Assembly: GCA_026016225.1 (NCBI GenBank)
Contig: CP061210.1
Span: 386,000 to 449,999 of the forward strand
Reading direction: 5' to 3'
Length of the DNA stretch: 64,000 bases
Origin: Candidatus Nealsonbacteria bacterium
Lineage (GTDB): Bacteria > Patescibacteriota > Minisyncoccia > Minisyncoccales > JANBVM01
Shown here piece by piece: positions 24,694-39,201 of the stretch. Below the pieces are notes generated by a model. The model made no database searches, was not told the DNA's origin, and worked only from the letters and a program-made list of their open reading frames with translations. The position numbers were made by a program, and so were the translations under genes. Every line of letters starts with the position of its first letter. Within the stretch, counting starts at the first letter, position 1.

Positions 24694-24710
24694 TTATTCT
24701 GAGTTATCGC

Positions 24711-24902: not shown

Positions 24903-25119
24903 ACTAAATTAAGATCGTAAATCCAAGCTTTAAGTTTCAGAACTTAAAGCTTATTTGAACGCTTAGTTAGAATTAAATTAAAAGCGACCTTTTGATTACT
25001 AAGCCGTTCTATTTTCCGATCTTTATTTTTAGAAAAGATTGTTTAAATGTTTCGACTTATAATCTGAGTAGAATAATAGCATGTTATTCTAAGCAAGTCA
25101 ACTTATATTGTACTTTGGC

Positions 25120-25162
25120 AAATAATGTGTGTAGATGTCAGACTTAATATTGTGCAACATTT
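25120..25162. repeat. left copy of a 43-bp inverted repeat (partner 37354..37396); its inner end is a TTGTGCAACAT site
   Basis: Hand alignment gives 39 of 43 identical to the reverse complement of 37354-37396. Weaker similarity continues outward to about 25101. Confidence 0.8.
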
Positions 25163-25232
25163 ATTATTTAATTTTAGATATCCGAGAGTTTTTCTCAGAT
25201 TTTTTACATTATATTTATAACAGCGGACAATC

Positions 25233-25251
25233 TATGTTGTGCGACATTAAA
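25233..25251 (+). repeat. island site copy (TATGTTGTGCGACATTAAA)
   Basis: Core TTGTGCGACAT, about 40 bp upstream of the lexA promoter. Confidence 0.7.
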
Positions 25252-25291
25252 ACTAGTATTGCCAGAAAATGAGTTATCCACAGATATATTC

Positions 25292-25320
25292 TTGACACCC
25301 GACCAAATGGTCGGTATTAT
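25292..25320 (+). promoter_or_regulatory. lexA promoter with a 16-bp perfect palindrome filling the spacer
   Basis: TTGACA 25292-25297, 17-nt spacer containing CCGACCAAATGGTCGG (25299-25314), TATTAT 25315-25320, then AAGAAGGA and the ATG at 25331. Confidence 0.5.
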
Positions 25321-25330
25321 AAGAAGGAAT

Positions 25331-25945
25331 ATGAAGAAAAAAAATATTACTAAAAGACAAAAAGAGGTATTACAGATAATTTACGATAATATAAAAGATT
25401 TCGGTTTTCCTCCTTCCTTTAGTGAATTAAAAGAAGGGTTGGGTATATCCTCGAATCAATCACTTTTAGATTTTTTTACAGTATTGGAAAGAAAAGACCT
25501 GATTATTAGAGAAGAAGGTTCAGCCCGGGGTATTAGAATTCTCAAAAAGGGATACAAAGCAATCAGTGCCAGGCCCTTGGCTCCGATAGTTGGTAGTACT
25601 TCAGCAGGTGAGTTTATTGAAGCTATAGAAGAAATTGATGCTTGGATACCTTTATCAAAAGATACAGAAATCATTTCTGATAATGTAATCGTCACAAGAA
25701 TTATTGGAAACTCAATGATAGGGGCCGGTATCGAAGATGGGGATTTGGTTTTATTCAAAAAAACAAATGAGTTTTCCTCTGGAGATATTGTTTTGGCCCA
25801 GACTCCTGATGGCACTACTGTTAAACGATTTATTTCTCAAGACAAACCCCCGTATCAGTTTTTAAAGCCGGAAAATCCTAAATATAAAATTATTCTTTTT
25901 ACTGATGAAATGGAAATGATTGGTAAAATGATTAAAAAATTATAA
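25331..25945 (+). CDS. lexA: LexA-type repressor (wHTH + S24 autopeptidase)
   Basis: LexA DNA-binding N-domain, Ala-Gly cleavage site (STSAGEF), catalytic Ser in GNSM and Lys in VKRF. Start moved from the TTG at 25259 to the ATG at 25331 because of the internal promoter. Confidence 0.8.
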   Translation: MKKKNITKRQKEVLQIIYDNIKDFGFPPSFSELKEGLGISSNQSLLDFFTVLERKDLIIREEGSARGIRILKKGYKAISARPLAPIVGSTSAGEFIEAIEEIDAWIPLSKDTEIISDNVIVTRIIGNSMIGAGIEDGDLVLFKKTNEFSSGDIVLAQTPDGTTVKRFISQDKPPYQFLKPENPKYKIILFTDEMEMIGKMIKKL

Positions 25946-25947
25946 AT

Positions 25948-26727
25948 ATGTCTAAGAAAATCTGGGAAAATTTTGAAGAGACAAAGTTATATAAAAATTG
26001 GGCCAGTTTTCTTCAGGCATTTTTTAGTCCTTATCCTTTAATATTTTTAGTTTTATCAATTCTTTCTATTTGGCTTTCTTTTAAATATAAAGAAAACATG
26101 CCATTTTCGGTATTAGTCACCATAATTGCAGCGTTTTTTTCTGGATTGGCTGGTGGTTTTATTAAGGATGAATTCAGTAGCTTAATGTTGGAAAAAAAAG
26201 GAAGATCTGCAGTAAGGAATTTAGAATCTATAAATCAGCAAATTTATAAAATACGGGGCTGGATTAAAGAATTTGTAAAAGGTAAAAGAGCTAAAGAAAG
26301 CTTAAAAGAAACAGATCGTCATCTAAGTATGGCAGAATTTAACATTCAAGCTGGCATAGAGGACTGGATTGATGTAGTGCCCGAACTGGGTATTTTTTCT
26401 AAAATTATAAGAAATCAAGAAACCGCTTTGTTTATAGGAAAGGAAAAGATAGCCTCAATAGAAAGAGAATTATTAAAAGTTAGAGATAATAGAGAGGTAA
26501 AAAAGAAACTAGCAGAGCAAAAAAAGCAAATCAGAAATTTAGAAAACACCATCTATAAGTTTAAAAAAGAACGTAGTTCAATAATAAGTAGTTTTTCATT
26601 AGTCGCCCCCTATCATTTTAAAAATTTAAATGTAAATGACTTAGAGGAGCAGATAAAATATTTATTAGAACAACTTGCCGAATTACAAAATGAACTGAGG
26701 AGACTGGAAGACAAAGAGAAAAAATAA
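25948..26727 (+). CDS. hypothetical 2-TM protein with long C-terminal coiled coil, co-transcribed with lexA
   Basis: 2-nt gap after lexA, two hydrophobic helices near the N-terminus, heptad-rich C-terminus. No motif recognised. Confidence 0.55.
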   Translation: MSKKIWENFEETKLYKNWASFLQAFFSPYPLIFLVLSILSIWLSFKYKENMPFSVLVTIIAAFFSGLAGGFIKDEFSSLMLEKKGRSAVRNLESINQQIYKIRGWIKEFVKGKRAKESLKETDRHLSMAEFNIQAGIEDWIDVVPELGIFSKIIRNQETALFIGKEKIASIERELLKVRDNREVKKKLAEQKKQIRNLENTIYKFKKERSSIISSFSLVAPYHFKNLNVNDLEEQIKYLLEQLAELQNELRRLEDKEKK

Positions 26728-26745
26728 ATATTGTGCGGTATCTAA
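26727..26745 (+). repeat. weak island site copy (AAATATTGTGCGGTATCTA)
   Basis: Shares ATATTGTGCG and overlaps the stop codon of the preceding gene. Confidence 0.45.
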
Positions 26746-26842
26746 GGATAAACATATAGATAGGTATTTATTCTACTTTGAATTTTTGAAGAAAATAGAG
26801 TTATTATAAAAGTAGAATCAATTAGTTTTCGTTTTATGTAAT

Positions 26843-28027
26843 ATGGGAGTAAAACAAGCAATTAGACAAAAAAAGCAACTTGGGCAATTTTTGACCAGGA
26901 ACTCAGACTACATTTTGAGAGATTTAGATAAGTACATTAAAGGTAAAGAAGTTGTTGACCCTTTTGCTGGAGAAGGAGATTTAATGGATTGGGCGAAACG
27001 TAATAAAGCAAAAAAAGTAATAGGTTATGATGTTGATGATAAATATGTAAACGGAAAAGATATTTTTTCAAACGATAGTCTTTTAAATCCGTTAGAATAT
27101 AAGTTTGTTTTAACTAATCCTCCGTATTTAAATATTAACAAAGCGAACAAGAAAACAAAGGATAAATATTTTAGTAAGTCCAAATTTGAAGATTTATATC
27201 AGATTTCCCTTTTTTCTATCCTTAATAGTGAAGAAGGAATTGTTATCGTTCCGATAAATTTTTTATCGGCTAGAAATTCAAAAAAAATTAAAAATATATT
27301 TTTTGATAAGTTTGAGATAGTAGAAATGAATTATTTTAAACATCAGGTTTTTCCCGATACGACTAATAATGTAATAGCTTTTTATTATAAAAAGAAAAAA
27401 AATCCCTTAAGTGATAGATTTTCTATTAAAACTCATATTTACCCAGGGAATAAAATATTTGACATTGAATTAAAAAGGAATTCTTTTTGGAACATACACG
27501 GAGATTTTTTGGACATTATTAAAAAGCAAAAAAATAATTTAGGAATTTCTAGATTAGTCGAGAGAGATGTTTGCAGAAAAAGAGGTCAAGTAGAAATACC
27601 GGCTGCATACAACCACATAGAAAGCATTAAGAGAGTAAAAGTTTCTGAAGACCTTTATAATGCAATAAAATCAAATATAATTTTATTAAAAGCAATTGAT
27701 AGCGGAACAGATAGTGGCAAGATTTCTCTTGAAGATATAAGAAAGTACGGCGTTAAATGCTTAGTAAGTAAAGAATCATCACGGCATATGATTTATCTCA
27801 TTTTTAAAGAGAAAATTTCTATTACAGAACAAAAAAGAATTATAAATATTTTTAATCAAGAACTGAATAGAATGAGAGACAAATATTTATCACTTTTTCT
27901 GACTAATTATCGAGACAATGATCGAAAAAGAATATCTTTCGATTTTGTTTACAAATTTATAAATTATATATATTTTAATAAAGTTAATCCTGAAAATAAT
28001 CAAAAATTGTTATTTCAGACAAAATGA
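26843..28027 (+). CDS. N6-adenine DNA methyltransferase (gamma-class, type II)
   Basis: Motif I VVDPFAGEGDL followed by motif IV LTNPPYL. Confidence 0.8.
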   Translation: MGVKQAIRQKKQLGQFLTRNSDYILRDLDKYIKGKEVVDPFAGEGDLMDWAKRNKAKKVIGYDVDDKYVNGKDIFSNDSLLNPLEYKFVLTNPPYLNINKANKKTKDKYFSKSKFEDLYQISLFSILNSEEGIVIVPINFLSARNSKKIKNIFFDKFEIVEMNYFKHQVFPDTTNNVIAFYYKKKKNPLSDRFSIKTHIYPGNKIFDIELKRNSFWNIHGDFLDIIKKQKNNLGISRLVERDVCRKRGQVEIPAAYNHIESIKRVKVSEDLYNAIKSNIILLKAIDSGTDSGKISLEDIRKYGVKCLVSKESSRHMIYLIFKEKISITEQKRIINIFNQELNRMRDKYLSLFLTNYRDNDRKRISFDFVYKFINYIYFNKVNPENNQKLLFQTK

Positions 28028-28800
28028 ATAAATGGGTTAAAAAAAGCATAAATTTAGCTAATTCTCGGGGATATCTCGATAGACTTTTTGAGGTCTATCC
28101 TATTGAAATGGGAGCAATTAGAGGCTTACCTAAAGGAACAAAAGCAAAGGTTAAGAATGTGCTTAAGACTAAAAATAAATTACATTTAATAGAAACTCTT
28201 TTAAAATTATCTAAATTTCCAATAGACGATCCCTATATTGCTTCTTTGAGAAGACACCCCCACTTATTAAAGAAAAACCCTAAAACAATCAAAAGAATTG
28301 GCAAAAGATTATTGTCGATGGGTTTGGGTACTATATTAAAGTTAGTCGCTAAACCAAAATCACCATCAAGGCAGCTTGGTCATAGTTTTAAAAATTGGTT
28401 GTTAACAAAAAAATATCCATTTCTAAAAGAGAATGAATTTAAAGAAACCAATAAAGTAGCATTTTTAGAGGGAAGTGATAAAAAATTAAAAGAGTTCGTC
28501 ATTAATGAGTTAAAAATTAGAAGTTTAAAAAGAAGACCAGACTTTATATTGAAAACAAAGAATAAATTTATCCTTGGAGAAGCTAAATTTTTAACTGATT
28601 ATGGTGGAACACAAAATAACCAGTTTGATGGAGCTTTAACAATGACAAAAATCAAAAGAGATAAAATTATAGGCATTGCTGTATTAGATGGTATTGCGTG
28701 GTTTAAAAGTAATTCTTATATGTATAAAACGCTAAACAAGTTGAATAGAATAGCAATAAGTGCGTTATTGTTGGAAGAATTTATTAAAAAGGGACCATGA
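28024..28800 (+). CDS. putative type II restriction endonuclease (PD-(D/E)xK)
   Basis: RRPDFILKTKNKFILGEAKF fits PD...ExK. 4-nt ATGA overlap with the methyltransferase. Confidence 0.6.
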   Translation: MNKWVKKSINLANSRGYLDRLFEVYPIEMGAIRGLPKGTKAKVKNVLKTKNKLHLIETLLKLSKFPIDDPYIASLRRHPHLLKKNPKTIKRIGKRLLSMGLGTILKLVAKPKSPSRQLGHSFKNWLLTKKYPFLKENEFKETNKVAFLEGSDKKLKEFVINELKIRSLKRRPDFILKTKNKFILGEAKFLTDYGGTQNNQFDGALTMTKIKRDKIIGIAVLDGIAWFKSNSYMYKTLNKLNRIAISALLLEEFIKKGP

Positions 28801-28869
28801 GAATATTTATTTTGACTAAAGCAAAAAACCCCTCGTTGGGTATTTTTTTAACGCTTGACAAACATCATT

Positions 28870-29193
28870 ATGATGCAGCATATGAATGAAAATAATATAA
28901 CATCCGGCTATAATGCAGTAAAAAGATTAGCGAGAGAACATTCAGGCTGGCTTCCAATAGTTGAAGCTTGTTTAGAAGAGGCGAAAATTACAAGGGGTGA
29001 ATTTGCTGGAGCTTGGGTATTGAAGCAAGCCAAGAAAAAGGGAATAAATTGGTTTCCAAATTTGAGGTTACTTGTTGGTTATGGGATTTTAAAGCATGAA
29101 GATACTACGCGAGGTGGTAGAAGGGCATATTATATAATTCCCGATCCAGAAGGAGTAGCAAGAGCATTACAAGAAATAAGAAAAAAGATTTAA
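28870..29193 (+). CDS. hypothetical winged-helix-like protein
   Basis: C-terminal LRLLVGYGILKHEDTTRGGRRAYYII looks like a wHTH wing. Start is ambiguous (TTG 28855 or ATG 28870). Confidence 0.4.
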   Translation: MMQHMNENNITSGYNAVKRLAREHSGWLPIVEACLEEAKITRGEFAGAWVLKQAKKKGINWFPNLRLLVGYGILKHEDTTRGGRRAYYIIPDPEGVARALQEIRKKI

Positions 29194-29311
29194 TCTTTTA
29201 AAAGTTGAAAGATTATTAATTCAGTTGTAGTGAAATTGCCGAGACATTCGTGAAACTTACCAAAGAACAAAGTTTTAGTTTTTGGGAGTAAAAAGTTAAA
29301 ACAAGTTTTTT

Positions 29312-29788
29312 ATGACCAAGGAAGATTTTGAGAAAATTAAAGAATTAGAAGATAAAGCTCGCAAAATAGAGAGCGAGGCTAAAAGATTAAAAGGCAGTGG
29401 AGAATATGATTTGAGTGTAAGGCGCTCGCAAGAAGCTTTTGAACTTTATTTAAAATTTATTTTTACAGTTTTAGACAAAGAAGTACGTGAAATTTGGGGT
29501 CATGAATTAAGCAGTTTAATTGATAAAGAAACGGAGGCTATCAAGAAAATTTTAAAAGAATATCTCAATTTTTCGGAAAGCTATATTGATGAAATAATGG
29601 CCCGTATCAAATTAGGAAGCCTCACTTTAAACTTATGGCGAAATTTAGCTTTTTACGGTGATGAAAAACTTAAAAAGTATAAGTTTTTTAAACAGAAAGA
29701 GGCCGAGCTTGCGTTAGAATATGTCTCTGAATTATCTACATTGAGTGCATGGATAAAAAATTATTTCAATAATAAATTTTATTCATGA
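29312..29788 (+). CDS. HEPN-domain protein
   Basis: All-helical, Rx4H motif in VREIWGHEL, later RNLAFYGD, as in PF05168-type HEPN proteins. No adjacent minimal nucleotidyltransferase. Confidence 0.5.
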   Translation: MTKEDFEKIKELEDKARKIESEAKRLKGSGEYDLSVRRSQEAFELYLKFIFTVLDKEVREIWGHELSSLIDKETEAIKKILKEYLNFSESYIDEIMARIKLGSLTLNLWRNLAFYGDEKLKKYKFFKQKEAELALEYVSELSTLSAWIKNYFNNKFYS

Positions 29789-29854
29789 TCACCTGTTTCA
29801 TTATCCAAAAATCGCAACTTGATTGCGTGCATCGGCTGAATTTTACTTAAATAT

Positions 29855-30241
29855 ATGACTACAAAATTTTGTACAGGCTGTAATAAAGAAAAGGAGATTA
29901 TTAAAACTGTCAAAGAAAAAAATACAACCACTCATTTTTTGTCTTGTGGCCATAAATTTGTTGAAGTTGTTTTGCAAGATTCTGTGAATGTTAAATCATC
30001 TATTCAAATGAGAATGAAGAGAGGAGAAAAAAGCTGGAATTATATTTATTATACCTTCAGTGTTTTATTAGCAGTTTTTTCTTTCATAATTGGTATTGGT
30101 AATATTTGGTGGGTTTATAAAGTCTTTATCTTTATAATAGGAGCATTCTTTTTATATTGGTTATGTTTTTGCAGCGCTTGGTTTCAAAACAAAATTATTG
30201 GTTTTAAGATAAAATTAGAAAATACATGGAGAAAATTATAA
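29855..30241 (+). CDS. zinc-ribbon protein with C-terminal 2-3 TM helices
   Basis: CTGC...SCGH ribbon, then a hydrophobic segment YIYYTFSVLLAVFSFIIGIGNIWWVYKVFIFIIGAFFLYWLCF. Confidence 0.5.
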   Translation: MTTKFCTGCNKEKEIIKTVKEKNTTTHFLSCGHKFVEVVLQDSVNVKSSIQMRMKRGEKSWNYIYYTFSVLLAVFSFIIGIGNIWWVYKVFIFIIGAFFLYWLCFCSAWFQNKIIGFKIKLENTWRKL

Positions 30242-30371
30242 AATTTAACTTAGCTCACAAAAATTGCTAATTTAGTCTACCAATCTCACGAAGCCTGCAA
30301 AAAAGCAAAGGAATTATTGGATGAAGCTAAACAAAAGGTCGATTGAGTATATTAAATAATTAAAAAATAAA

Positions 30372-30524
30372 ATGCCATTTACAAAAGCCAACCTTTATAA
30401 AGATGCAGTAGCTTTGGCAAAAGAGCTTTTTAGGAATGGGGAGGCCTCGAAGTTTGGATCTCTCGAAAGCATTATCAAAGAAATTTTCGAGACATTAAAA
30501 GAAATAAACGAAGAAATAGAGTAA
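30372..30524 (+). CDS. hypothetical 50-aa helical protein (below the ORF-track cutoff)
   Basis: Hand-translated as MPFTKANLYKDAVALAKELFRNGEASKFGSLESIIKEIFETLKEINEEIE. It ends directly at a cassette-end element. Confidence 0.3.
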   Translation: MPFTKANLYKDAVALAKELFRNGEASKFGSLESIIKEIFETLKEINEEIE

Positions 30525-30590
30525 TTAATACTGTGCAACATTTAATTTTTAATAGAAACCGTTAGGGTAGACAACTAACGTTTTTTTATT
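30523..30590 (+). repeat. cassette-end element copy 1: site TTAATACTGTGCAACATTTAAT + hairpin CGTTAG/CTAACG + T7
   Basis: About 80 percent identical by hand alignment to 35177-35245. The hairpin at 30560-30580 plus the T-run acts as a terminator. Confidence 0.75.
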
Positions 30591-30644
30591 TTTATTGACC
30601 TTTTTTAGAAATAGAGCTATTTTGAAGGTGGATAAATTTAATCT

Positions 30645-31555
30645 ATGAAAGAAAAAATTAAGAAAATTTTAAAATTGGGGTTTATTTCTACTTTGATGTG
30701 TTTAGGCTTAGTCTTTCTTATCGCTATTATTTCGCCAGACTCTTCTCTGCTTGAAGAAAAACTTCCTGCTTCAATTCACGAAGGCATAGAGAAGGAACAA
30801 CCTCCCCTCAATCACAAAAGGAATCTCAAAAGGAAAAATCTGAATCTCAACCCCAACCCGAACCTGAGCTCGAACCAGAACCTTGTGCTAATATAACTTG
30901 TCTTTCTTGTAAGTATTGTGATTCTGGAATTTGCGTTAATTATTGTAAGGGCGATGACACTAGTTGTGGTTGCAATTCTTGTATTAACTGCAATAGCTCG
31001 GATGGTTGGGTAACTAGAGGTTCTTCGTATTCTTGCTGTGAGGGAAACAAGAAATGTGTCTGTCAAAACCAAGAATACCGTGATTACTACTGTTTGGGAA
31101 ATTCTTGCACCTATTTAATAACAAATAACAGAACTAACAAAACTAACTGTTATGAGTGTGCTTCTTATCAGTATTGTTCAGGAGGAACCTGTTATACCGA
31201 ATCTCAGGAAGAGATAATATGTTCTTACGATGCCTATAACTGTTCTAATTTCTCTACTCACGCAGAAGCTCAGAATATATTCGAATATTGTGGCGGAGTT
31301 AGTAATGATATCCACTATCTTGACGGAGATAACGATGGAATAGCCTGTGAAAGTCTAATTTCCAGCCCCACATCTCCTCCCGAATCTTCTTCTCCTAACT
31401 CATCCATAATTTGTTCCTATAATGCATATAATTGCTCACAGTTTTCTACTCACGAAGAAGCTCAATCAGTTTTTGAATACTGTGGAGGAGTAAGTAATGA
31501 CATTCATCGGCTTGATGGAGATAATGATGGAATAGCTTGTGAAAGTTTACCTTAA
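30645..31555 (+). pseudogene. secreted Cys-rich protein with two Excalibur Ca-binding domains, interrupted by a frameshift at a C4 run
   Basis: The signal/TM N-terminus is in frame 0. The P/Q/E linker, Cys-rich region and both Excalibur repeats (DGDNDGIACESL) are in frame 2. One extra C at 30804-30807 would fuse the two frames. Confidence 0.6.
31214..31549 (+). repeat. tandem duplication of a 144-bp Excalibur-domain unit (31214-31357 and 31406-31549)
   Basis: The encoded 48-aa units IICSY(D/N)AYNCS...LDGDNDGIACESL are near-identical. Confidence 0.85.
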
Positions 31556-31674
31556 AATGGAAAGTTTCTAATTTTTAATTAAAAAACCCATCGTTGAGCA
31601 ATTAATGTCGGACGAGGCATAAAAAGAGAAACAAGACTGAAGAATATTGAAAATCATAAAATTAAATAACTATT

Positions 31675-31860
31675 ATGGCTACTCTTTTTAAAGTTGATAC
31701 TTGGGAATTTATAAAAGAACTCGTTAAGAGCACGTGGTTTGCCTTGTGGTATTTTTTTATTAAGCCATTCTGGTGGCTTTTTTTGATTATAATTTTGGTG
31801 GGAGTTCTAAAAAGATGGCTTCCAGACATTATTAATAAACTAAAAAGTAAAGTAAAATAA
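31675..31860 (+). CDS. hypothetical small membrane protein
   Basis: 61 aa, aromatic-rich TM segment. A fully overlapping antisense ORF makes the call uncertain. Confidence 0.35.
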   Translation: MATLFKVDTWEFIKELVKSTWFALWYFFIKPFWWLFLIIILVGVLKRWLPDIINKLKSKVK

Positions 31861-31867
31861 ACCAATG

Positions 31868-31889
31868 TCGAACAAGGTATCTTGTCCGA
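31868..31889. repeat. 22-bp imperfect palindromic island site TCGAACAA-GGTATC-TTGTCCGA
   Basis: Arms match 7 of 8 as inverted repeats. Same half-site as the TTGTGCGA family. Confidence 0.7.
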
Positions 31890-32134
31890 ATATAGAAAAA
31901 GTCGAAGAATTAATTTAGTAGAAGATATTGGTGGAGTTCAGATTTTAAACGTGAAGGTTTGATTAAAGTCGGATTACGTTCTAGATTAAGAAAATAACGT
32001 CTAAAGATAAATAGAAAAAGCTCATCGTTGGACGATTTTTTATTCCTTGAGTTTTTCAAAAAATCAGTCTATTCTGAAAGTAGAAAGATATTTTTTAGAA
32101 AAAATAGTAAAAAAAATAATGAGTTTCTTAAAAC

Positions 32135-33775
32135 ATGGCTATTATCGCTCCAAAACCCAAATCTCTTAAGGAATTAATTCGAGATAAGTACTATCGGGTA
32201 CCACTATATCAAAGATCCTATGATTGGGAAATCGATAAGGTATCTGTACTTTGGGATGATGTATATAAAAACGCTCCCGGTTATTTTTTAGGTATAGTTC
32301 TTTTTAAACCTGGGTCAGAATCCGACCTACACCCTGTTAAATTTGAGATTGTGGATGGTCAACAACGATTGGCTACTCTTCTATTGCTTCTACGTGCTGC
32401 TGTTGAGACACTTGAACAAGCGGGGTCTAAAGATATAGCACATGAATTTCAGAGGGATTACATTAACCAAAAGTCAGCTGGGGAGAAAGAATCACGAATG
32501 ACATTAATTTTAAATAAACGCGATAAAGATAAATTTGAGCATCTTTTACTTGGCGAGCAATTTCGAATTAAAAAGAAATTGTCTTCGTGGAAAAATTTAG
32601 ACAAAGCAATCCAATTTTTTCGCGAAAAATTCGGCAATCTTATTAAGGAGCAAGGTAAAGATGGCATAATTAATTTTATAAACAGAAGAATTTTGAAACT
32701 TTCATTTACCGAAATACTTTTGGGTACCGACAGCGATGTTTATCAATTTTTTGAGACATTGAATGATAGAGGAATGGATCTATCTATTGCTGATTTAGTA
32801 AAAAATCGTGTTTGTGCAGAGGCGTCCAAGCAGAAAGCTGATGTAGAAGAAAGTGCTCTGACGATAGATAAAATTTCAGAGGAGCTTGGTTCGGGTAAAT
32901 TAAAAGGGTTTCTCCTTCATTATTGTTGGGCTAATGACGAAGGGAAAGAGCCTACACCTAGGAAGAAACTCATGGTTTGGTACGGTAATCGAGTTAGTAA
33001 GGCCGATAAAATTAACAACTTTTTAGACCATTTAGAAACATATGCTCTACAGTACTATATCAATTTTGTGAAACCAAATAAGTGTACCGATTCGAAAAAA
33101 AGAACGGCATTTACTTATTTAGATGCTTTGGGAGCAACACGTTGTTATCCTTTACTTTTGACGGGGGAAGAATCTCTAAAGAAAAAAGATTTTCTTAGCT
33201 TGTGCAATGCGATTGAGATCTTAACATTTCGCCATAGCACCATTCTGAAAAGGGACGCGAAAGTCCTTGAGGGTGTTTTCTTTAACATGATAAGAAATCT
33301 TAGAAAACGAAAACCCATTAAGGAAATCTTAGAAATTTTCAAAAGACAAAATGCCATGAAAGCTGACGAACAATTTAAGTTGGCTTTCGCTGAATTTATA
33401 CCAGCAAATCATAAAATAGCCAGGTATACCCTTTCAAAAATTGAAGAAGTTATGATTGGTAAAAAGCAAGCACCTCTTTCTTGGGACAACCTTACGCTCG
33501 AACATATATTGGCAGAAAAACTCGATTGGGAAGGACGAGAGGAATATCTAGAACGGTTGGGTAATTTAACTTTATTGTCACCTGGGATGAACATTGATGC
33601 TGCCAATGAACCTTTTAAAGAGAAGCGTAAACGGGTTTATAAAGTGGAAAAGCGCATTAAAATCACCAAAGACTTGACTAGTTTTCCTGATTTTACGAAA
33701 GATACAGTTATTTCACGCCAAAAAGATTTCGCTAAGCTTGCAATTAAAATTTGGAATTCTAAGAGAATATCATAA
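32135..33775 (+). CDS. DUF262/DUF1524 fusion nuclease (GmrSD-family, type IV restriction-like)
   Basis: N-terminal YRVPLYQRSYDWE and DGQQRL (DUF262). C-terminal LEHILAEK...GNLTLLSPGMN His-Me finger (DUF1524). Confidence 0.8.
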   Translation: MAIIAPKPKSLKELIRDKYYRVPLYQRSYDWEIDKVSVLWDDVYKNAPGYFLGIVLFKPGSESDLHPVKFEIVDGQQRLATLLLLLRAAVETLEQAGSKDIAHEFQRDYINQKSAGEKESRMTLILNKRDKDKFEHLLLGEQFRIKKKLSSWKNLDKAIQFFREKFGNLIKEQGKDGIINFINRRILKLSFTEILLGTDSDVYQFFETLNDRGMDLSIADLVKNRVCAEASKQKADVEESALTIDKISEELGSGKLKGFLLHYCWANDEGKEPTPRKKLMVWYGNRVSKADKINNFLDHLETYALQYYINFVKPNKCTDSKKRTAFTYLDALGATRCYPLLLTGEESLKKKDFLSLCNAIEILTFRHSTILKRDAKVLEGVFFNMIRNLRKRKPIKEILEIFKRQNAMKADEQFKLAFAEFIPANHKIARYTLSKIEEVMIGKKQAPLSWDNLTLEHILAEKLDWEGREEYLERLGNLTLLSPGMNIDAANEPFKEKRKRVYKVEKRIKITKDLTSFPDFTKDTVISRQKDFAKLAIKIWNSKRIS

Positions 33776-33817
33776 AAAACCGTTTAGGCCGTCATTAGAC
33801 TACAATTCTTATTAACG

Positions 33818-33839
33818 TCGCACAATACACCTTGTGAGA
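33818..33839. repeat. 22-bp imperfect palindromic island site TCGCACAA-TACACC-TTGTGAGA
   Basis: Read directly. Preceded by ATTAACG as in the 37351 copy. Confidence 0.65.
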
Positions 33840-33891
33840 CCATCTTCTCATAAGGTATAAAAACCGTCATCAGTTAATAAAAAATGATTTT

Positions 33892-34114
33892 ATGCTGATT
33901 AAAGTTAAGGTTTTCCCGGCCTCAAAAGAAGAAAAAATAATAAAAAAGAAGGAGGATAGCTTTGAGATTAGGGTTAAAGAAAAACCCATCAGGGGAGAGG
34001 CAAATAGAGCAGTAATTGATGTTTTATCCAATTTTTTTTAATGTTCCAAAAGATAAAATTAAATTAATAAAAGGATTTAAACAAAGAAATAAAATCTTTG
34101 AAATAGCTATATAA
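33892..34114 (+). pseudogene. DUF167 (YggU-like) gene split by a +1 frameshift in a T8 run
   Basis: MLIKVKVFPASKEEKII...RGEANRAVIDVLSNFF stops at 34041. The next frame continues NVPKDKIKLIKGFKQRNKIFEIAI. T8 lies at 34032-34039. Confidence 0.65.
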
Positions 34115-34157
34115 TGCTATGTTAAGAATCGTTGGAGTGGGCGACTAACGGTTTTTT
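34105..34157 (+). repeat. degenerate third copy of the cassette-end element (hairpin CGTTGG/CTAACG + T6)
   Basis: The hairpin at 34130-34150 matches the stems at 30560 and 35215. The site part is barely recognisable. Confidence 0.45.
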
Positions 34158-34168
34158 ATTTACATTGG

Positions 34169-34237
34169 CCTTTTTCAACTTCACAGTACTCAAGGAAATC
34201 GGGGATATGTTTTAAAATTGGCTTGTCAGATTTTTTT
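34169..34237 (-). pseudogene. relic of the first ~23 codons of a second tyrosine recombinase gene
   Basis: 56 of 68 nt identical to 36129-36196. It encodes KKSDKPILKHIPDFLEYCEVEKG versus MKKSKTPIIKHIPDFLDYCEVEKG. The start codon is lost. Confidence 0.75.
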
Positions 34238-34300
34238 CCTTTGTTGGTTTAAACAGATATTCTTGACAAAAGTTTTTTATGTTATAGTAAAAAAAGAGGT

Positions 34301-34801
34301 ATGAATAGAAAGAAATATAAGGTAATCTTGCATTACATCATTAAAGAATGCGGGAGTAAGCCTAATTTTGGAAAAACAGTCTTGTGGAAGCTTTTGTATT
34401 TTGCAGATTTTGACTTTTACGAGCTTTATGAGAAGCATCTTATTGGTGAGAAATATAAGAACATAAAGTATGGTCCAGCTCCTGTGCGTTTTAATAAAAT
34501 AATAGGAGAACTAAAATCGGAGAAAAAGGTTAAAGAAGTAAAAGAAAAAATTGGACGCTATGATAAAAAAAGATATATTGCATTAGAGGAACCCAATTTA
34601 GAAGTCCTTTCAGGTAATGAAAAAGAGTTGCTTGACAACATGATAAAGAGATATGGGTCTTACAATGCTTCTCAAATAGAGGAAGTCTCGCATAAGGATA
34701 TTCCGGTAAGAGCCACTGGAAGGGGAGAGCTAATTGAGTATGAACTTGTTTTCTATCGTGAGCCTCCGTTCAGTATTCGTTCTTATGAAAAAAAGGAGTA
34801 A
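34301..34801 (+). CDS. Panacea/DUF4065 (SocA-like) antitoxin-domain protein
   Basis: GKTVLWKLLYFADFDFYELYEKHLIGEKYKNIKYGPAP matches the DUF4065 signature. Confidence 0.7.
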   Translation: MNRKKYKVILHYIIKECGSKPNFGKTVLWKLLYFADFDFYELYEKHLIGEKYKNIKYGPAPVRFNKIIGELKSEKKVKEVKEKIGRYDKKRYIALEEPNLEVLSGNEKELLDNMIKRYGSYNASQIEEVSHKDIPVRATGRGELIEYELVFYREPPFSIRSYEKKE

Positions 34802-34806
34802 GAGAT

Positions 34807-35172
34807 ATGAAGATAGAGCAAGTTGATGAATTCAATAAGGATGTTAAAAAATTAGAAAAGAAATTCCGCACGATACGAGCAGATTTAGAGAACTTCAAAA
34901 AAATTTTAATTATCAACCCAGAGAAATTAGTAGGAGCTATCCCTGTACATTATCAAGAAGTTAAAATAAATCCAAAAGTAAAGGTATATAAAGCAAAAAA
35001 ATTTAGATGTAGGTATCTAAAAGGTAGAGGTTGTTTCAGCGGCATAAGAGTTATATACGGTTTCTGGTGGGCTGTTCAAAAAATTACTTTATTAGAAATT
35101 TATTATAAAAAGAAGAGGAAAAAGGATTGTGATTTAGAAAGGCTAAAATATTACTTTGGAGTACAAACATAA
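34807..35172 (+). CDS. putative cognate toxin (RelE/ParE-like features)
   Basis: 5-nt gap after the antitoxin gene, 121 aa, FNKDVKKLEKKF start and GIRVIYGF core typical of RelE/ParE-fold toxins. Confidence 0.45.
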   Translation: MKIEQVDEFNKDVKKLEKKFRTIRADLENFKKILIINPEKLVGAIPVHYQEVKINPKVKVYKAKKFRCRYLKGRGCFSGIRVIYGFWWAVQKITLLEIYYKKKRKKDCDLERLKYYFGVQT

Positions 35173-35176
35173 ACTC

Positions 35177-35245
35177 AATTAATATTGTGCGACATTTAAT
35201 AAGTGAGAGAAAACCATTAGGGTAGGCAGCTAACGGTTTTTTTTA
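35177..35245 (+). repeat. cassette-end element copy 2: site TTAATATTGTGCGACATTTAAT + hairpin + T8
   Basis: Stem AAACCATTAG/CTAACGGTTT at 35211-35239. Serves as a bidirectional terminator between the toxin gene and the recombinase gene. Confidence 0.75.
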
Positions 35246-36199
35246 TTCCTTCAGATTTTTACCACTGTGGAATTTACGATGAATGTCTCGAAGCCGCTTG
35301 CTTGTTACGTGAGTATATATTTGGGTTGTGACAATGTTTTTGTGGCCCAAAAATTCTTGGATGGTTCTTAAATCAACGCCTTGGGTTAGGAGATCGGTTG
35401 CCATACTGTGGCGGAGAGTGTGGGGAGTAGTAAATATAGGGATACCGGCTAAGATTGCATATTTTTTAACGATTCTTTCTATAGAACGAGACGTTAAGCG
35501 GGCGTCTGCACCCCTTTTAGATCTATAGTTGATAAATAGGGCTTTTTCTTTGTCTTTTCTTGTTTCCAAATATTTTTTAAGCCAAGACAAAGCTCTTTCT
35601 GAAAAATAGACTGTTCGGGGATGACCTCCTTTACCAATAACACTGAGCTCCAACCCTTTTTTGTTTTCTATATTGGCAAATTGTTCTTTATTGAGGGCCA
35701 CTAATTCAGCTATTCTTAAGCCAGTTGAGAAAAGTGCTTCCAAAATAGCCTTATTTCTTAAACCAATAGGGCTTTTGGTGCCAGGAGCTAGTAAAAGTCT
35801 CTCAACTTGCTCTAAACTGAGGAATTTGACTGTTTTTCCCTTTTTAGCGTCCTTTGGGAGCTTTATTTTATCAGCAGGCAATGAAACTATATCTTTGGCT
35901 GTGAAATAGCTTAGGAGGGCTCTCAGGGCGATTAGATAGTAGTTCTGGGTTATTTTCTTCAGGGGTTTACCCTTATAATGCTTAAATCTTGATAAATAGA
36001 GCCGGTAGTCCCAAATATCGTCTGTAGTCAGTTGGTGGGGCCTTAAATCCTCTTTTTTTGCCCTTTTTAGCCAGGAGACGAACTTCTGGAGGTAGCGCTG
36101 ATAATTTTCCTGTGTTTTATTAGATAATCCTTTTTCTACTTCACAATAATCCAGAAAGTCGGGGATATGTTTTATAATTGGTGTCTTTGATTTTTTCAT
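35243..36199 (-). CDS. tyrosine site-specific recombinase, XerC/XerD-like
   Basis: SAM-like N-domain. Catalytic residues in GLRIAEL, HTLRHS, LGH and IYTHV. No IntI-type insertion. Confidence 0.9.
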   Translation of the reverse strand: MKKSKTPIIKHIPDFLDYCEVEKGLSNKTQENYQRYLQKFVSWLKRAKKEDLRPHQLTTDDIWDYRLYLSRFKHYKGKPLKKITQNYYLIALRALLSYFTAKDIVSLPADKIKLPKDAKKGKTVKFLSLEQVERLLLAPGTKSPIGLRNKAILEALFSTGLRIAELVALNKEQFANIENKKGLELSVIGKGGHPRTVYFSERALSWLKKYLETRKDKEKALFINYRSKRGADARLTSRSIERIVKKYAILAGIPIFTTPHTLRHSMATDLLTQGVDLRTIQEFLGHKNIVTTQIYTHVTSKRLRDIHRKFHSGKNLKE

Positions 36200-36296
36200 A
36201 AATTATTTTTTATATTTTTACCTATTCTCTAAGAGTAAAAATTGAGTATTTGGGGGAGAGGTTCTAATGGAACCCTTTTGTCATATATATTAAATG

Positions 36297-36318
36297 TCGC
36301 TTAACCTACATTGTGCGA
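36297..36318. repeat. 22-bp imperfect palindromic island site TCGCTTAA-CCTACA-TTGTGCGA
   Basis: Flanked by AATG / CATT (AATGTCGC...GCGACATT). About 100 bp upstream of the recombinase start. Confidence 0.65.
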
Positions 36319-36387
36319 CATTATATCTATATATATTGTACCGTGTCAAAACACGGTGTCAAGTACTCCCCTATAAGGTATTTACAT

Positions 36388-36417
36388 GAAAAAACTATCT
36401 CTTACTAGATAGCTTTT
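36388..36417 (-). terminator. rho-independent terminator after the RT-partner gene
   Basis: On the minus strand, AAAAGCTATCT-agtaag-AGATAGTTTTTT. Confidence 0.55.
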
Positions 36418-36424
36418 ATTTTTA

Positions 36425-37291
36425 CTATTTTTCTTCTTGTTTATTAAAAAGCTCTGCTTGTAACTTTTGTACCTCAAAAACATCAAGAAGTGTTACCTTT
36501 AAATTCTCATCAATATGAGCCTTACACTTCACTTTTACGGGTCCCTTATAGAGAAAATATGGATATAATTCTTCTGGATTTTCATTAGCAAAACGATAAG
36601 TAACTCTTGTTCCGTCATTTAAAATAAAGAATCCTTTATTTGTTGATTTGGTTAAAGAGTTAAAGGCTCCAACTAACCAGAGCTCTTTTGTCTTTGTTAT
36701 TGAAACAGTCTCTGTGTCAAAATATATTTTTTCATCAAAGGTTATTTTTTCTTTCAACTCCTTTTTTTTATGGATTACCTTAATTTCTGCCGAATCTACC
36801 CTACCCTTCTCCAGTGGTTTAGCAATTTTTGCAAGATCGGGGTCTAAAATACGTTCTTTAAATAACTGGAACACATCCACAGGGATTTCTATTGTTACAT
36901 TTTTACTGTTTTTAACCGATATTAGAGTATTATCAGCCCCTGTTATTTTTTCAGTATATGGTTGGTTTCCAGTATGTTTCTTTAATTGAATAACACCTAG
37001 AATAATAGTAACTACAGTAAAAGCACCTCCCCCCAGCATTGCGCTTATAGCTTGTATTTGGTCTGAGTGTGCGCCAATCCATTCCCATGCCTCTAATAAT
37101 ATATCAAATGAGCCCCCTTCTACACCAACAATTCTTAATTTATGTTCTGAAGTAAATCCTTTATTACTAACGACCTTTCCATACGCGCTCGCAAATCCCT
37201 GAAGAACCGGTATTATGTCTTCAATTGACATCGTTCCATCGTCAACATCTTTTCCGGTATATTTTAAAGTTACCCTAAGTGACTCTTTCAT
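36425..37291 (-). CDS. hypothetical single-TM protein downstream of the reverse transcriptase
   Basis: 288 aa with a central hydrophobic helix AISAMLGGGAFTVVTIILGVIQL and a beta-rich C-terminal half. No motif recognised. Confidence 0.6.
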   Translation of the reverse strand: MKESLRVTLKYTGKDVDDGTMSIEDIIPVLQGFASAYGKVVSNKGFTSEHKLRIVGVEGGSFDILLEAWEWIGAHSDQIQAISAMLGGGAFTVVTIILGVIQLKKHTGNQPYTEKITGADNTLISVKNSKNVTIEIPVDVFQLFKERILDPDLAKIAKPLEKGRVDSAEIKVIHKKKELKEKITFDEKIYFDTETVSITKTKELWLVGAFNSLTKSTNKGFFILNDGTRVTYRFANENPEELYPYFLYKGPVKVKCKAHIDENLKVTLLDVFEVQKLQAELFNKQEEK

Positions 37292-37353
37292 ATTTTTATT
37301 ATAGCAAATTATTTTGATTAGTTCCCTATCCTAATAGCTCTACATAGGCTATT

Positions 37354-37396
37354 AAACGTCGCACAATATTAAGTCTGATATCTGCACACATTATTT
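37354..37396. repeat. right copy of the 43-bp inverted repeat (partner 25120..25162)
   Basis: 39 of 43 identical in inverted orientation. Contains the site ATTAAACGTCGCACAATATTAAG at 37351-37373. Confidence 0.8.
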
Positions 37397-37457
37397 ACCT
37401 AATAATGCCTAATATGCCTTGTACGATACTTATACAACTTAAATACCAAATTCGCTT

Positions 37458-39071
37458 TTATCTTACCCTGTAGAAATAAATAATTTCGAATTTTTCTTCT
37501 CCAAGAGTTTCAATTTTAATACGATCATAGGGACGGAAATACATTGCTTTTTGTAAATTCTTTATATAATTCACAAAAGACTTTGGCCATATCCTTTTTC
37601 GAACACTTCTATAAAAATCATTTCTTGATGCTAAGCCTAATTCTTGAACCGCCAAAGCGATACTCTTTCTAATTTCATTTTTTTCAGCTGAATTAAATTC
37701 ATCTATTAAGAGTTCTCTATCCGTATTTCTACCATATTGCCCTACTAATAAACAATATAATGATCTAACGGCCCAATTCCGATTTTTATCTAAAAATCTT
37801 CTGGATAGCTTTTTTAACAAATTTCTATTAACAGTTATCTTCATTTTTAGTAAAGCTCTCAAAACATGAAGCTCTTGCCACTCATAAATATTGTCTTTAG
37901 AGAATAAAAACTTTATCAGAAACTCTTTTATTCTTTGACTTCGTGGAAACAAAGTAAGAAAGCTACAAAAATCTTTGGAGTGATGCGGCTTTTTGGTAAA
38001 ATTATCAAGTATCAAATCAATAGCAATTTTTTCATTAAAATCAATCCCGCTAGATTTTAATATTGATAAACGAAAAATACCAAAATTTAAATGACGTCTT
38101 TGAAAAGGATTTTTATCAGAAAATCCTCCTTTAAAAATATCCTTTAGGAGAATTGATTTAATTGCCTGAATCTTAGAAAACTCCTGAGACTCGAGAGCTT
38201 CTTGAATTGAATCTAAAATCGCCTTCTTGGGATCGAATAACTCTTTCTCAATCTCAAGGTTTCGAAGTATCCTTGTTTTTTTAGCATTTATATTGAGTTT
38301 ATATTTTCTTAGCGATTTCACTATTTTAATTAATGCTTTTTTAGCTTTAATTTCTGATTTACAAAAAACTCTAATATCATCCATGTAACGGAAATAACTA
38401 GGCTCTGATTCCATTTCTCTATCAAAATTATCTAAATATATATCGCCTAAAAACGAAGAGGCTGTAGGTCCCTGCGGCAATCCAAAATTTTCTACTCGTC
38501 TAGAGCTCCAAGGTAATAAAATTTTATTATGGAGAAAATCTATTACTTCTGTAGTATTTTTATCTCTTTTGTCTATATAGTTTATCAGTTTTTTTCGTAG
38601 CTCGCGAAGGTCTATATTTTCGAAATAGCCTGAGATATCTGTTATTACTACATATAAATTACCAGATTTATACAAATCACGACTTTTATCATCAAATTTC
38701 TTCCAAGCATTAACTCGTCTTCTCCTTGGATCTCTAAAATTTAACATACTATAGCTTCGTCTGCTTGTTTTCCTAATAATTTTGGGGACTAAATAATTGA
38801 TAACGGCTTGATAGGCAATCCAGTCAGTAATTTCCGGCCTTGCCATAGGTCTTATCGTAAAATTGCTTTTGGGCACATCTATCATTAATAAAGGTTCAAC
38901 TGAATATTTCCCATTTTTTATTTTTTCTTTAATTTCTTTAAAGATTAACTTTTTATCTAAAGTAACATATGAAAATCTTAAAGGATCAGGAGTAGGGTTA
39001 TTACCCCTTCTATCGTCTCTTAATATAGATTTGAAAGCATTTTCTAAATCTAATTTCATAATTTGACACAC
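37458..39071 (-). CDS. reverse transcriptase, UG/Abi-like, with helical-repeat C-terminal domain
   Basis: RT motifs in order: TIRPMARP, VVITDISGYFENID, GLPQGPTASSFLGDIYL, FRYMDDIRVF, LNINAKKT. About 250 aa of helical tail. GTG at 39071 or ATG at 39059. Confidence 0.85.
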   Translation of the reverse strand: MCQIMKLDLENAFKSILRDDRRGNNPTPDPLRFSYVTLDKKLIFKEIKEKIKNGKYSVEPLLMIDVPKSNFTIRPMARPEITDWIAYQAVINYLVPKIIRKTSRRSYSMLNFRDPRRRRVNAWKKFDDKSRDLYKSGNLYVVITDISGYFENIDLRELRKKLINYIDKRDKNTTEVIDFLHNKILLPWSSRRVENFGLPQGPTASSFLGDIYLDNFDREMESEPSYFRYMDDIRVFCKSEIKAKKALIKIVKSLRKYKLNINAKKTRILRNLEIEKELFDPKKAILDSIQEALESQEFSKIQAIKSILLKDIFKGGFSDKNPFQRRHLNFGIFRLSILKSSGIDFNEKIAIDLILDNFTKKPHHSKDFCSFLTLFPRSQRIKEFLIKFLFSKDNIYEWQELHVLRALLKMKITVNRNLLKKLSRRFLDKNRNWAVRSLYCLLVGQYGRNTDRELLIDEFNSAEKNEIRKSIALAVQELGLASRNDFYRSVRKRIWPKSFVNYIKNLQKAMYFRPYDRIKIETLGEEKFEIIYFYRVR

Positions 39072-39087
39072 AAGATACCTTGTTTGG
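39066..39087. repeat. weak island site ACACACAA-GATACC-TTGTTTGG overlapping the RT start
   Basis: ACAAGATACCTTGTT is shared with the reverse complement of the 31868 site, and the 6-bp centre is identical. Confidence 0.5.
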
Positions 39088-39153
39088 CATTATTCCTATT
39101 TAACCTTACCTCGCTTTTTTCATTTTTTCAATATAGATTATACGGCAGTAACC

Positions 39154-39180: not shown

Positions 39181-39201
39181 AATTATTTTTTTAATATTTT
39201 A

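Follow-up and report, generated by a model that had tools for sequence, protein, structure and literature searches.

A putative dif/Xer system and dif-like sites at gene-module joints near the replication terminus of a Candidatus Nealsonbacteria genome

In a 64,000-nucleotide stretch of the genome of a Candidatus Nealsonbacteria bacterium (contig CP061210.1 of assembly GCA_026016225.1, forward-strand positions 386,000 to 449,999; hereafter the window), the 11-bp motif TTGTGCGACAT recurs in the intergenic DNA of a variable gene region, or island, that surrounds xer, the gene of a Xer-family tyrosine recombinase. Our analysis makes it probable that TTGTGCGACAT is the arm recognised by the organism's own Xer, that one of its sites, at 36294-36321, is the dif site of the replication terminus and that the others are the joints of exchangeable gene modules. 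We infer from the sequences that Xer binds the arms and catalyses the exchanges at these sites.

The window was scored for TTGTGCGACAT with zero to two mismatches allowed, using 100 dinucleotide shuffles as the null. Seven copies have at most one mismatch, compared to 0.32 ± 0.57 expected, and none of the 100 shuffles reached seven. All seven lie within 25150-37366 and there are none in the remaining ~52 kb of the window. Four are on the plus strand, at 25150-25160 (one mismatch) and at 25237-25247, 35185-35195 and 36311-36321 (no mismatches), and three are on the minus strand, at 31865-31875, 33815-33825 and 37356-37366 (one mismatch each). At two mismatches, the 15 copies seen in the window compared to 7.2 expected are not significant overall, and the three such matches beyond the island are at chance level. 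A preliminary description of the window had reported a recurrent motif in the intergenic DNA of the island, and the strong copies all lie at the places it noted. It had named an even spread of the motif, or its absence from homologous islands with the same recombinase, as grounds for abandoning its reading of the copies as recombinase sites; we found that the motif is unevenly spread and that homologous regions with this recombinase do contain it. The head-to-head palindromes that it described are also real, but the 8-6-8 layout it assigned to them is better replaced by 11-6-11. Five 11-6-11 palindromes with at most six arm mismatches in total start at 25220, 31865, 33815, 36294 and 39063, all in the island, whereas the mean number of chance sites in 200 runs of a Markov-1 simulation was 0.06 and the maximum 1. 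Besides the candidate dif at 36294, there are two classes of copies: full 11-6-11 sites whose centres differ from that of dif, and half-sites made of TTAATA plus one arm.

The xer gene and the candidate dif site

The xer gene (35243-36199, minus strand) encodes a protein of 318 amino acids (aa) with a Pfam Phage_integrase domain (1.6e-40) and SAM-like N-terminal domains. The protein scores 225 bits with the NCBIfam XerD model, 222 with XerC and 198 with XerA, all under the equivalog cut-offs, with E-values of 1e-66 to 1e-67 for the XerD and XerC models, and its top PDB match is XerD (1a0p, 2e-41). The XerS model gives 113 bits compared to a cut-off of 267, the match to XerH (5jjv, 1.5e-11) is much weaker than that to XerD, and two integron integrase models give 99 and 57 bits compared to cut-offs of 265 and 435. 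Because the scores fall under the XerC, XerD, XerA and XerS cut-offs, we regard the protein as a Xer-family enzyme of its own subfamily, and its scores likewise place it outside the XerS, XerH and integron-integrase families. Homologues that are about 80% or more identical number in the thousands in a protein search and are named from Candidatus Nealsonbacteria and other Patescibacteria; when one genome per species was scanned, 80 loci with a Xer of 69-97% identity were recovered. In 46 of them xer is preceded, at a distance of 1.9-3.4 kb, by a co-oriented gene for glutamyl-tRNA synthetase (GluRS), and in many cases a 137-aa gene (p137) separates the two; xer thus has a conserved position on the chromosome.

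These data bear on two further statements of the preliminary description. Its reading of the motif as a tyrosine-recombinase site is supported, but xer is not an island gene: it is the conserved terminus Xer of the clade, and the sites are therefore dif and dif-like sites. The statement that the Xer-like gene is the only recombinase gene in the window is correct, as a search of the window revealed no other recombinase in the island and tblastn shows no second copy save a remnant at 34120-34236 (minus strand; residues 2-42, 56% identity). In this remnant a hairpin, the 3' end and the 5' end of a second xer are fused, and by blastn it matches the xer 5' ends of many loci. The remnant and another at 30557-30605 each adjoin a half-site copy or a degenerate copy of one. 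Across species Xer (69-97% identity) is steadily more conserved than GluRS (39612-41228; 51-73%, excluding the closest relative, L003). The two proteins also give relationships that are at odds, with L001 showing 97% identity in Xer and 73% in GluRS and L003 showing 84% and 98%, respectively, and this disagreement suggests lateral exchange of an xer module.

The candidate dif, ATGTCGCTTAA-CCTACA-TTGTGCGACAT, is located at 36294-36321, 95 bp upstream of the xer start codon. It is two arm mismatches away from a perfect palindrome and has the dif layout of ~28 bp with two arms around a 6-bp centre. For the comparison between species, which covered 10 kb on either side of xer in each locus as well as the single 64-kb window, the 28-bp sequence in xer orientation, ATGTCGCACAA-TGTAGG-TAAAGCGACAT, served as the reference, and 75 species loci had enough upstream DNA. 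A match with at most six mismatches is present within 330 bp upstream of xer in 65 of these 75 species, 50 of which have at most four mismatches, and in 71 of the 75 the upstream match is the best of the whole ±10-kb locus. The distance from the site to xer is 33-280 bp, with a median of 91. The centre TGTAGG/CCTACA is found in 45 of the 65 upstream sites and its orientation is also kept, as is the asymmetry of the arms, one being a CACAA arm and the opposite one a CTTTA/CTTAA arm. The window contains one full site with a CCTACA centre, and there is likewise one per 21-kb locus. The arm and the XerC arm of the E. coli dif, GGTGCGCATAA, have CGCA.AA in common (PMC3025954).

The cumulative GC skew of the window reaches its maximum at ~36 kb, at the candidate dif, and the flanking genes converge there. 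Moreover, of 42 species loci with 5 kb or more to either side of xer, 40 show positive skew upstream of the gene and negative skew downstream. The sequence at 36294-36321 is therefore an imperfect palindrome that is locally unique, conserved, adjacent to xer and situated at a skew switch, and these are the sequence features by which dif is called; the XerS, XerH and XerL systems were recognised in the same manner (PMC1914069, PMC3325230, PMC9765430). In the mechanism that we propose, Xer dimers would bind the two inverted arms of dif, one of them reproducibly degenerate, strand exchange would take place at the CCTACA centre between them, and the site would serve the resolution of chromosome dimers.

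The site also appears to be built into the control region of xer. A predicted xer promoter (TTGACA, 18 nt, TATAAT; 12/12 consensus positions) is located at 36320-36349 on the minus strand, where its -10 hexamer overlaps the outer end of the candidate dif, and the surrounding sequence, 36284-36373, is conserved at the DNA level in several species. With the promoter just outside dif and the -10 hexamer overlapping it, xer transcription would start in or just after dif. This arrangement suggests that Xer bound at dif would repress its own gene, and hence that xer may be autoregulated.

One-armed half-sites around xer

The half-sites have the consensus tTaATA-TTGTGCGACAT-TTA, with an uninformative distal arm. 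Directly after the xer stop codon, 42 loci have an arm with one mismatch at most, and mostly with none, and an inverted half-site twin is found 0.45-1.2 kb upstream of xer in 23 loci. The half-sites upstream of xer are in plus orientation in 34 cases versus 4 in minus, and those downstream are in minus orientation in 66 cases versus 8 in plus. By this strict polarity the arm of a half-site always faces dif. The window fits the pattern, with the copies at 25150, 30531 and 35185 in plus orientation to the left of dif and the copy at 37356 in minus orientation to its right.

Four half-sites in the window are of type A, in which TTAATA directly precedes the arm. The first of these, with the arm TTGTGCGACAT, is at 35179-35195 (plus strand), just past the xer terminator. 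The inverted twin, with the arm TTGTGCGACGT, is at 37356-37372 (minus strand) between a reverse transcriptase (RT) gene and a 288-aa gene; it is part of an inverted repeat copy at 37350-37402, and the same site is in the same place in L003. The third, with the arm CTGTGCAACAT, is at 30525-30541 (plus strand) and abuts the stop codon of a 50-aa open reading frame (ORF). An extended similarity here covers 36 nt, and the half-site is followed by a copy of the hairpin next to xer and by the xer 3'-end remnant at 30557-30605. The fourth, with the arm TTGTGCAACAT, is at 25144-25160 (plus strand), at the left border of the variable region and inside the other copy of the inverted repeat, 25114-25166. 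The preliminary description had noticed the TTAATA centre common to these four copies (25144, 30525 and 35179 forward, 37367-37372 reverse), as we did. A weak half-site, TAAATA plus TTGTGCGGTAT with two mismatches, overlaps the stop codon of a 259-aa ORF at 26725-26741 (plus strand) and is plausible from its position. Among the weak copies, those at 26731 and 30531 are plausible, the one at 31605 is marginal, and the one at 29235-29248 is unsupported because it needs an indel.

One sequence outside the island, at 48034-48049, had been put forward as related and does not belong here, as it is GTCGTTCGCGAACGAC without a 6-bp centre and has another architecture. It forms a perfect 16-bp palindrome inside ACGTCGTTCGCGAACGACAT in an intergenic gap, and it has the outer ACGTCG/CGACAT in common with the Xer arms.

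Most sites, at 26725, 30525, 31865, 33815 and 35179, adjoin the stop codon of the preceding gene, and on the other strand 37372 comes after the RT gene. A unit of site, hairpin and xer 3' end is present three times (30525-30605, ~34100-34236 and 35179-35260), and the two inverted repeat copies, 25114-25166 and 37350-37402, are 53 nt long and 87% complementary, with the same pair in L003. Neither the unit nor the repeat figured in the preliminary description. An Rfam scan of 23000-41000 with E-values up to 1 gave no RNA family, and hence the unit of site and hairpin corresponds to no known RNA. The repeated unit and the inverted repeat are what one would expect if the repeats were a small non-autonomous element unrelated to the recombinase, similar to repetitive extragenic palindromes (REP) or miniature inverted-repeat transposable elements (MITE). 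We give this possibility almost no weight, since none occurs in the remaining ~52 kb of the window, the copies keep a fixed position relative to xer in 80 species, most copies have only the 11-bp arm and 3-6 flanking bases in common and single copies occur on phage contigs. The inverted repeat reaches ~30 nt past the half-site on the distal side. Its counterpart in L001 is a properly spaced full site, ATGTCAGATAA-TCTATG-TTGTGCGACAT, whereas in the window version the stretch from the outer ATGTC to GACAT is 2 bp shorter.

We also considered the inverted half-site pair as attL and attR of a single integration event. Both half-sites read TTAATA-arm on their own strand, and this interpretation was rejected because conservative recombination at one centre cannot give TTAATA-arm on both strands. 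As a separate observation, one locus, L079 (DAOSAR010000018.1), is the only one with GluRS downstream of xer on the opposite strand, which is the layout expected for an xer-dif unit inverted between its flanking half-sites. The metagenome-assembled genome (MAG) that contains L079 is labelled as an archaeon, probably through a binning error.

Homology breakpoints, module joints and phage contigs

The two closed relatives L001 and L003 have the same flanks as the window with other cargo between them. Homology of the left flank (97% with L003 and 86% with L001) stops at 25160-25163, and homology of the L001 xer module covers 35178-36373, beginning at the T of TTAATA. The window and L003 are 99-100% identical from 37500 down through dif and 72-87% identical across xer, and the first mismatch between them is one base past the weak arm of dif. 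Compared to L001, the window is unrelated to the right of ~36385 and 81-97% identical through xer, and the similarity ends at half-site 35179. These opposite patterns indicate that the segment from dif to the half-site, xer included, differs in ancestry from its flanks.

Individual cassettes show comparable breaks. A cassette with a GmrSD gene is also found on two other contigs, away from xer, at 88-89% DNA identity. Homology of the copy on L136 (89%) extends to 33825, where the gene-proximal arm ends, and beyond this position L136 has another centre (TATACC in strong-arm orientation) and another distal arm, the pattern that an exchange inside the centre would be expected to leave. The same L136 contig encodes, at 2223-3773, a single 516-aa product with LexA/S24 domains and a D12-class methyltransferase domain. 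When L006 is compared to L009, it has an extra 1.5-kb cassette with a 362-aa gene between two direct 85-nt repeats, each composed of a half-site and a promoter-like flank, and the cargo past this cassette matches the sequence that directly follows the L009 half-site. The xer remnants near extra half-site copies would fit past insertion of xer-carrying segments and their subsequent decay. In an all-against-all comparison of 81 loci, alignment ends are enriched 10-13 times near sites; most such alignments are of xer or core genes, and we therefore rely on the individual cases rather than on this figure. In the same loci, the three 1-kb bins around xer have arm densities of 0.84, 0.38 and 0.43 per kb, and all other bins at most 0.1.

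Four full dif-like sites accompany the candidate dif in the window. The leftmost, ACAGCGGACAA-TCTATG-TTGTGCGACAT, is at 25220-25247 (plus strand). The preliminary description had recorded a single-arm copy at 25233; the copy is present, but its arm belongs to this full site. The TCTATG centre is also found in L001, L007, L020 and L023. In L007, CAGACTCACAA-TATGTT-TTGTGCGATAT is present with its flanks in two identical inverted copies 1.2 kb apart, with sites at +4318, +4356 and +5549 from the xer start, and a TCTATG site adjoins the pair; this may be an invertible segment. The GmrSD cassette is bounded by ATGTCGAACAA-GGTATC-TTGTCCGAATA at 31865-31892, upstream, and by ACGTCGCACAA-TACACC-TTGTGAGACCA at 33815-33842, at its 3' end. 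The fourth site, TTGACACACAA-GATACC-TTGTTTGGCAT at 39063-39090, is weak, with three mismatches per arm; it is next to the start codon of the RT gene, at the right-hand edge of the variable region, and L003 has TTGACACACAA-GATACC-TTGTCTGACAT at this position. The common GGTATC/GATACC centre that had been pointed out for the sites at 31876 and 39074 was found again. TATACC, TCTATG, TACACC/GGTGTA and GATACC are full-site centres seen in several genomes.

The left flank of the variable region consists of a methylpurine glycosylase gene (MPG) and a small zinc-finger gene (zf), and the right flank of p137 and GluRS. Between them modules are delimited at 25220, 26725, 30525, 31865, 33815, 35179, 37356 and 39063, and xer is the only recombinase gene. 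The region is a patchwork of defence genes and includes a LexA-like repressor gene (25331-25945) beside a gene for a 259-aa membrane or coiled-coil protein, a type II restriction-modification (R-M) pair (Eco57I-like methylase and Tsp45I-like nuclease), genes for a HEPN protein, an Excalibur-domain protein and GmrSD (HEC-06), and a SocA/Panacea toxin-antitoxin pair. To the right of dif are a gene for a 288-aa protein similar to the candidate defence family PDC-S42 (36425-37291, minus strand; 9e-16) and one for a UG21-class defence RT (37458-39059, minus strand; 5e-89). The UG21 RT and PDC-S42-like pair is 99% identical in L003, with the half-site between the two genes. The Excalibur-domain gene contains a 144-nt direct repeat (31214-31357 and 31406-31549, 78% identity) that duplicates the calcium-binding domain, and this ORF and an 83-aa ORF at 30645-30896 are maybe one gene split by a frameshift. 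The motif was also considered as the recognition sequence of the Tsp45I R-M system, a candidate that was dropped as the motif is found in genomes without that system.

A discrete mobile island, with the sites as its att or core sequences, xer as its integrase and the 53-nt inverted repeats as its ends, would account for the defence-gene cargo bracketed at 25114-37402, for the phylogenetic discordance between the xer module and its flanks and for the two xer remnants. It is nonetheless very unlikely, because xer is in the same place by GluRS and p137 in 46 loci from different species, is located at the skew switch in 40 of 42 loci and is present whatever the cargo. Furthermore, the RT module and the site at 39063 are outside the inverted repeat yet within the variable region, and the inverted repeat is missing from L001.

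The competing reading offered in the preliminary description, that the motif is the operator of the LexA-type repressor of the island (25331-25945), which would then co-regulate the island genes, does not hold up. A LexA homologue is encoded in only 2 of 81 xer loci (L003 and L059), whereas nearly every locus has the motif beside xer. The copies are intergenic and the half-site loosely resembles CGAACA, but stop codons rather than promoters adjoin most of them; the two copies upstream of the lexA-like gene (25144-25160 and 25220-25247) are at least 46 bp upstream of its -35 hexamer, and in L059 there is no TTGTGCGACAT near lexA. The lexA-like genes of the window, L003 and L059 instead have a different palindrome in a common promoter, TTGACA-C-CCGACC-N4-GGTCGG-TATTAT, in which the perfect palindrome CCGACC-N4-GGTCGG fits exactly between the -35 and -10 hexamers. 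In the window this promoter is at 25293-25322 and the palindrome, CCGACC-AAAT-GGTCGG, is at 25299-25314 and unique. CCGACC-N4-GGTCGG is likely the operator of the LexA-like repressor and a better candidate than the motif, and we consider the LexA operator reading of TTGTGCGACAT to be extremely improbable.

Our preferred reading, that the arms are recognised by Xer, extends to contigs outside these genomes. For contig searches we used the full-site pattern ATGTCGNNNNANNNNNNTTGTGCGACAT, with 18 fixed bases. Exactly one site matching this pattern is present on each of 44 IMG/VR phage-like contigs, and 40 of the 44 sites are intergenic compared to 33% non-coding DNA by the same crude measure. No Xer homologue was detectable in the DNA examined of these 44 contigs. 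The unconstrained arm positions give back the consensus [C/T/G]A[C/A/T]A, and several of the sites mimic dif closely, with CCTACA or TGTAGA centres. A 17-mer half-site gave eight matches in viral contigs, of which seven were judged to be due to chance (lone single copies without the usual TTA). Only L091 (IMGVR_UViG_3300021399_000735) is informative; in its intergenic segment 86-134 a full site with a TTAATA centre, ATGTCGTAAAA-TTAATA-TTGTGCGACAT, runs directly into a half-site with the dif centre, TAAC-CCTACA-TTGTGCGACAT. L091 has tail and connector-like ORFs, and the segment is a candidate attachment region of a phage of the candidate phyla radiation (CPR) that uses the host Xer. Among metagenome contigs, at least 120, with a G+C content of 0.29 to 0.63, match the full-site pattern. 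The commonest form among the matches listed is ATGTCG(C/T)AAAA-GATATA-TTGTGCGACAT; a Xer homologue (26-76% identity) is encoded 0.1-2.4 kb from the site in 23 of the 120 matches listed and, among these, in 5 of the 11 contigs that extend 3 kb or more to either side of the site. Thus, the arm is in use well beyond this genus.

Several points weigh against exchange at these sites by Xer. Tyrosine recombinases need matching centres, and the neighbouring sites mostly have different ones, so that they could not recombine with each other. The half-sites have no second arm and may be binding sites only. The orientation of the xer unit is the same in 46 of 47 loci in spite of the inverted half-sites with the same centre around xer and dif, and thus inversion is rare or absent. 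One copy of the GmrSD cassette (L135) has no site and the other (L136) has only one, which means that cassettes also move by other routes. In addition, homologous recombination that stops at the limit of the homology could also leave breakpoints at short conserved sequences. The GC skew is partly confounded with the convergent orientation of the genes. Finally, no circular cassette form, integration junction or rearranged read was found, and a metagenome search with exact flanks for other junctions in this strain was empty.

The half-sites bring in a further possibility, in which a single Xer protein binds them and they serve to mark or insulate the terminus, as the XerD-specific XDS sites of B. 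subtilis do, while the full sites are dif and dif-like sites as before. XDS sites, ascribed to Karaboja et al. (2021), are an established precedent; two reports describe them as dif-like terminus sequences besides dif that are bound by XerD without recombination and unload SMC (PMC11840125, PMC11894783). Such a role would suit the single arm with its uninformative distal side, the strict polarity towards dif, the near-invariant copy after the xer stop codon and the near-absent inversion between inverted copies. XDS sites themselves are reportedly half-sites. What this role leaves unaccounted for are the homology breaks and the direct-repeat cassette insertion exactly at half-sites and the xer remnants that adjoin extra half-site copies. 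Unlike XDS, moreover, the sites described here are found within a few kb of dif, with strict polarity and at cassette joints; all half-sites of the window are within ~11 kb of it, not dispersed through a large ter domain. On balance an exclusive role of this kind is rather unlikely, though to be taken seriously. The half-sites could act as acceptor sites comparable to attI or as binding-only sites comparable to XDS, and both may hold. The one-armed form, the polarity and the near-absence of inversion favour binding only, and the breakpoints and the direct-repeat insertion favour an acceptor role, for which the half-sites would have to be competent for recombination.

Relation to other Xer systems and significance for Patescibacteria

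The dif-like sites lie in the variable DNA that occupies the terminus between conserved flanks, zf/MPG to the left and p137/GluRS to the right, and according to the mechanism proposed here modules would be inserted, lost or swapped at these sites by Xer-mediated exchange in the centre. In this genome the modules would be the R-M, HEPN and GmrSD modules, the Panacea toxin-antitoxin pair, the UG21 RT and the LexA-like pair. Incoming or neighbouring dif-like sites with matching centres would recombine with resident sites, so that a cassette array would be built and reshuffled around dif. The xer gene itself, between dif and the half-site at its 3' end, would behave as an exchangeable module.

As in XerS/difSL of streptococci and lactococci (PMC1914069) and XerH/difH of Helicobacter and Campylobacter (PMC3325230, PMC2731167), there is one Xer rather than XerC plus XerD, the gene is linked to an imperfect palindrome and the site is at the replication terminus. 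The protein differs from both, as it is closer to XerD, XerC and XerA than to XerH and is not a XerS. The site differs as well: its sequence bears no relation to those of difSL and difH, its length is 28 bp (31 bp in difSL), it is inside the xer promoter and 5' leader, and it is flanked by polar half-sites. XerL/dif of Legionellales, with the element LME-1, is likewise a lineage-specific single-recombinase dif/Xer system with mobile DNA that carries a dif mimic, and it was discovered from an att-like site repeated near the terminus (PMC9765430). Its recombinase family and site are different, and it involves one element, in contrast to the many sites and many small modules of the system described here, which is a prediction from sequence.

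The pdif modules of Acinetobacter resemble the island in that several 11-6-11 sites bound gene modules, including toxin-antitoxin modules (PMC12907356, PMC11705084, PMC5790767). They likewise have no recombinase of their own, and their content varies between relatives. Unlike the island, pdif modules are mostly on plasmids, with sites in alternating orientation, and use XerC plus XerD; the modules described here are chromosomal, surround the terminus dif, depend on one Xer, carry phage-defence cargo and include one-armed sites. Integrative mobile elements exploiting Xer (IMEX), such as CTXphi, TLCphi and gokushovirus prophages, have no integrase and one dif-like site, integrate at dif and can form tandem arrays (PMC9226527, PMC4246890, PMC7062461). 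The 44 phage-like contigs with single site copies are similar to IMEX, whereas the island cargo does not consist of phage genes and most island site centres differ from that of dif. By analogy, the system may be viewed as a gene-linked single-recombinase module of the XerS, XerH and XerL type combined with Xer-dependent modules of the pdif and IMEX type.

Integrons, composed of IntI, attI and attC, offer another parallel, with a tyrosine recombinase gene beside an acceptor-like site and a variable array of cassettes that each end in a site. However, the recombinase described here is not IntI (99 bits compared to 265) and is a housekeeping enzyme of dimer resolution, its sites are by sequence short 28-bp double-strand palindromes or single arms rather than folded single strands like attC, and the cassettes have their own promoters. 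We tentatively raise the possibility, which we hold to be less than even, that in these ultra-small bacteria the housekeeping Xer also drives an integron-like cassette platform of the terminus, where the invariant half-site after xer and its inverted twin upstream would be the acceptors, defence and other genes would be gained, lost and passed between lineages as promoter-bearing cassettes with a Xer site at their end, and xer would be a cassette swapped at dif. If so, the swapping of xer at dif would help to explain why Xer is more conserved across the clade than GluRS.

The location of dif inside the xer promoter, the strictly polar half-sites on both sides and the exchange of xer at dif may be new features. 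To our knowledge this combination has no counterpart in other Xer systems. In the literature that we searched, and with that limit, we found no description of dif/Xer for Patescibacteria (CPR) and no mention of the arm sequences. Surveys describe frequent genomic islands and transferred defence genes in the streamlined CPR genomes, and the one consulted here names no recombinase (PMC12455944). If our interpretation is correct, it provides a basic chromosome-maintenance element for the CPR, which make up a very large share of bacterial diversity and are almost uncultured, together with a sequence marker of the terminus in genomes and MAGs. The system would also offer a concrete, testable mechanism for CPR gene flux, and phages that carry the site could be assigned to CPR hosts through their dif mimicry.

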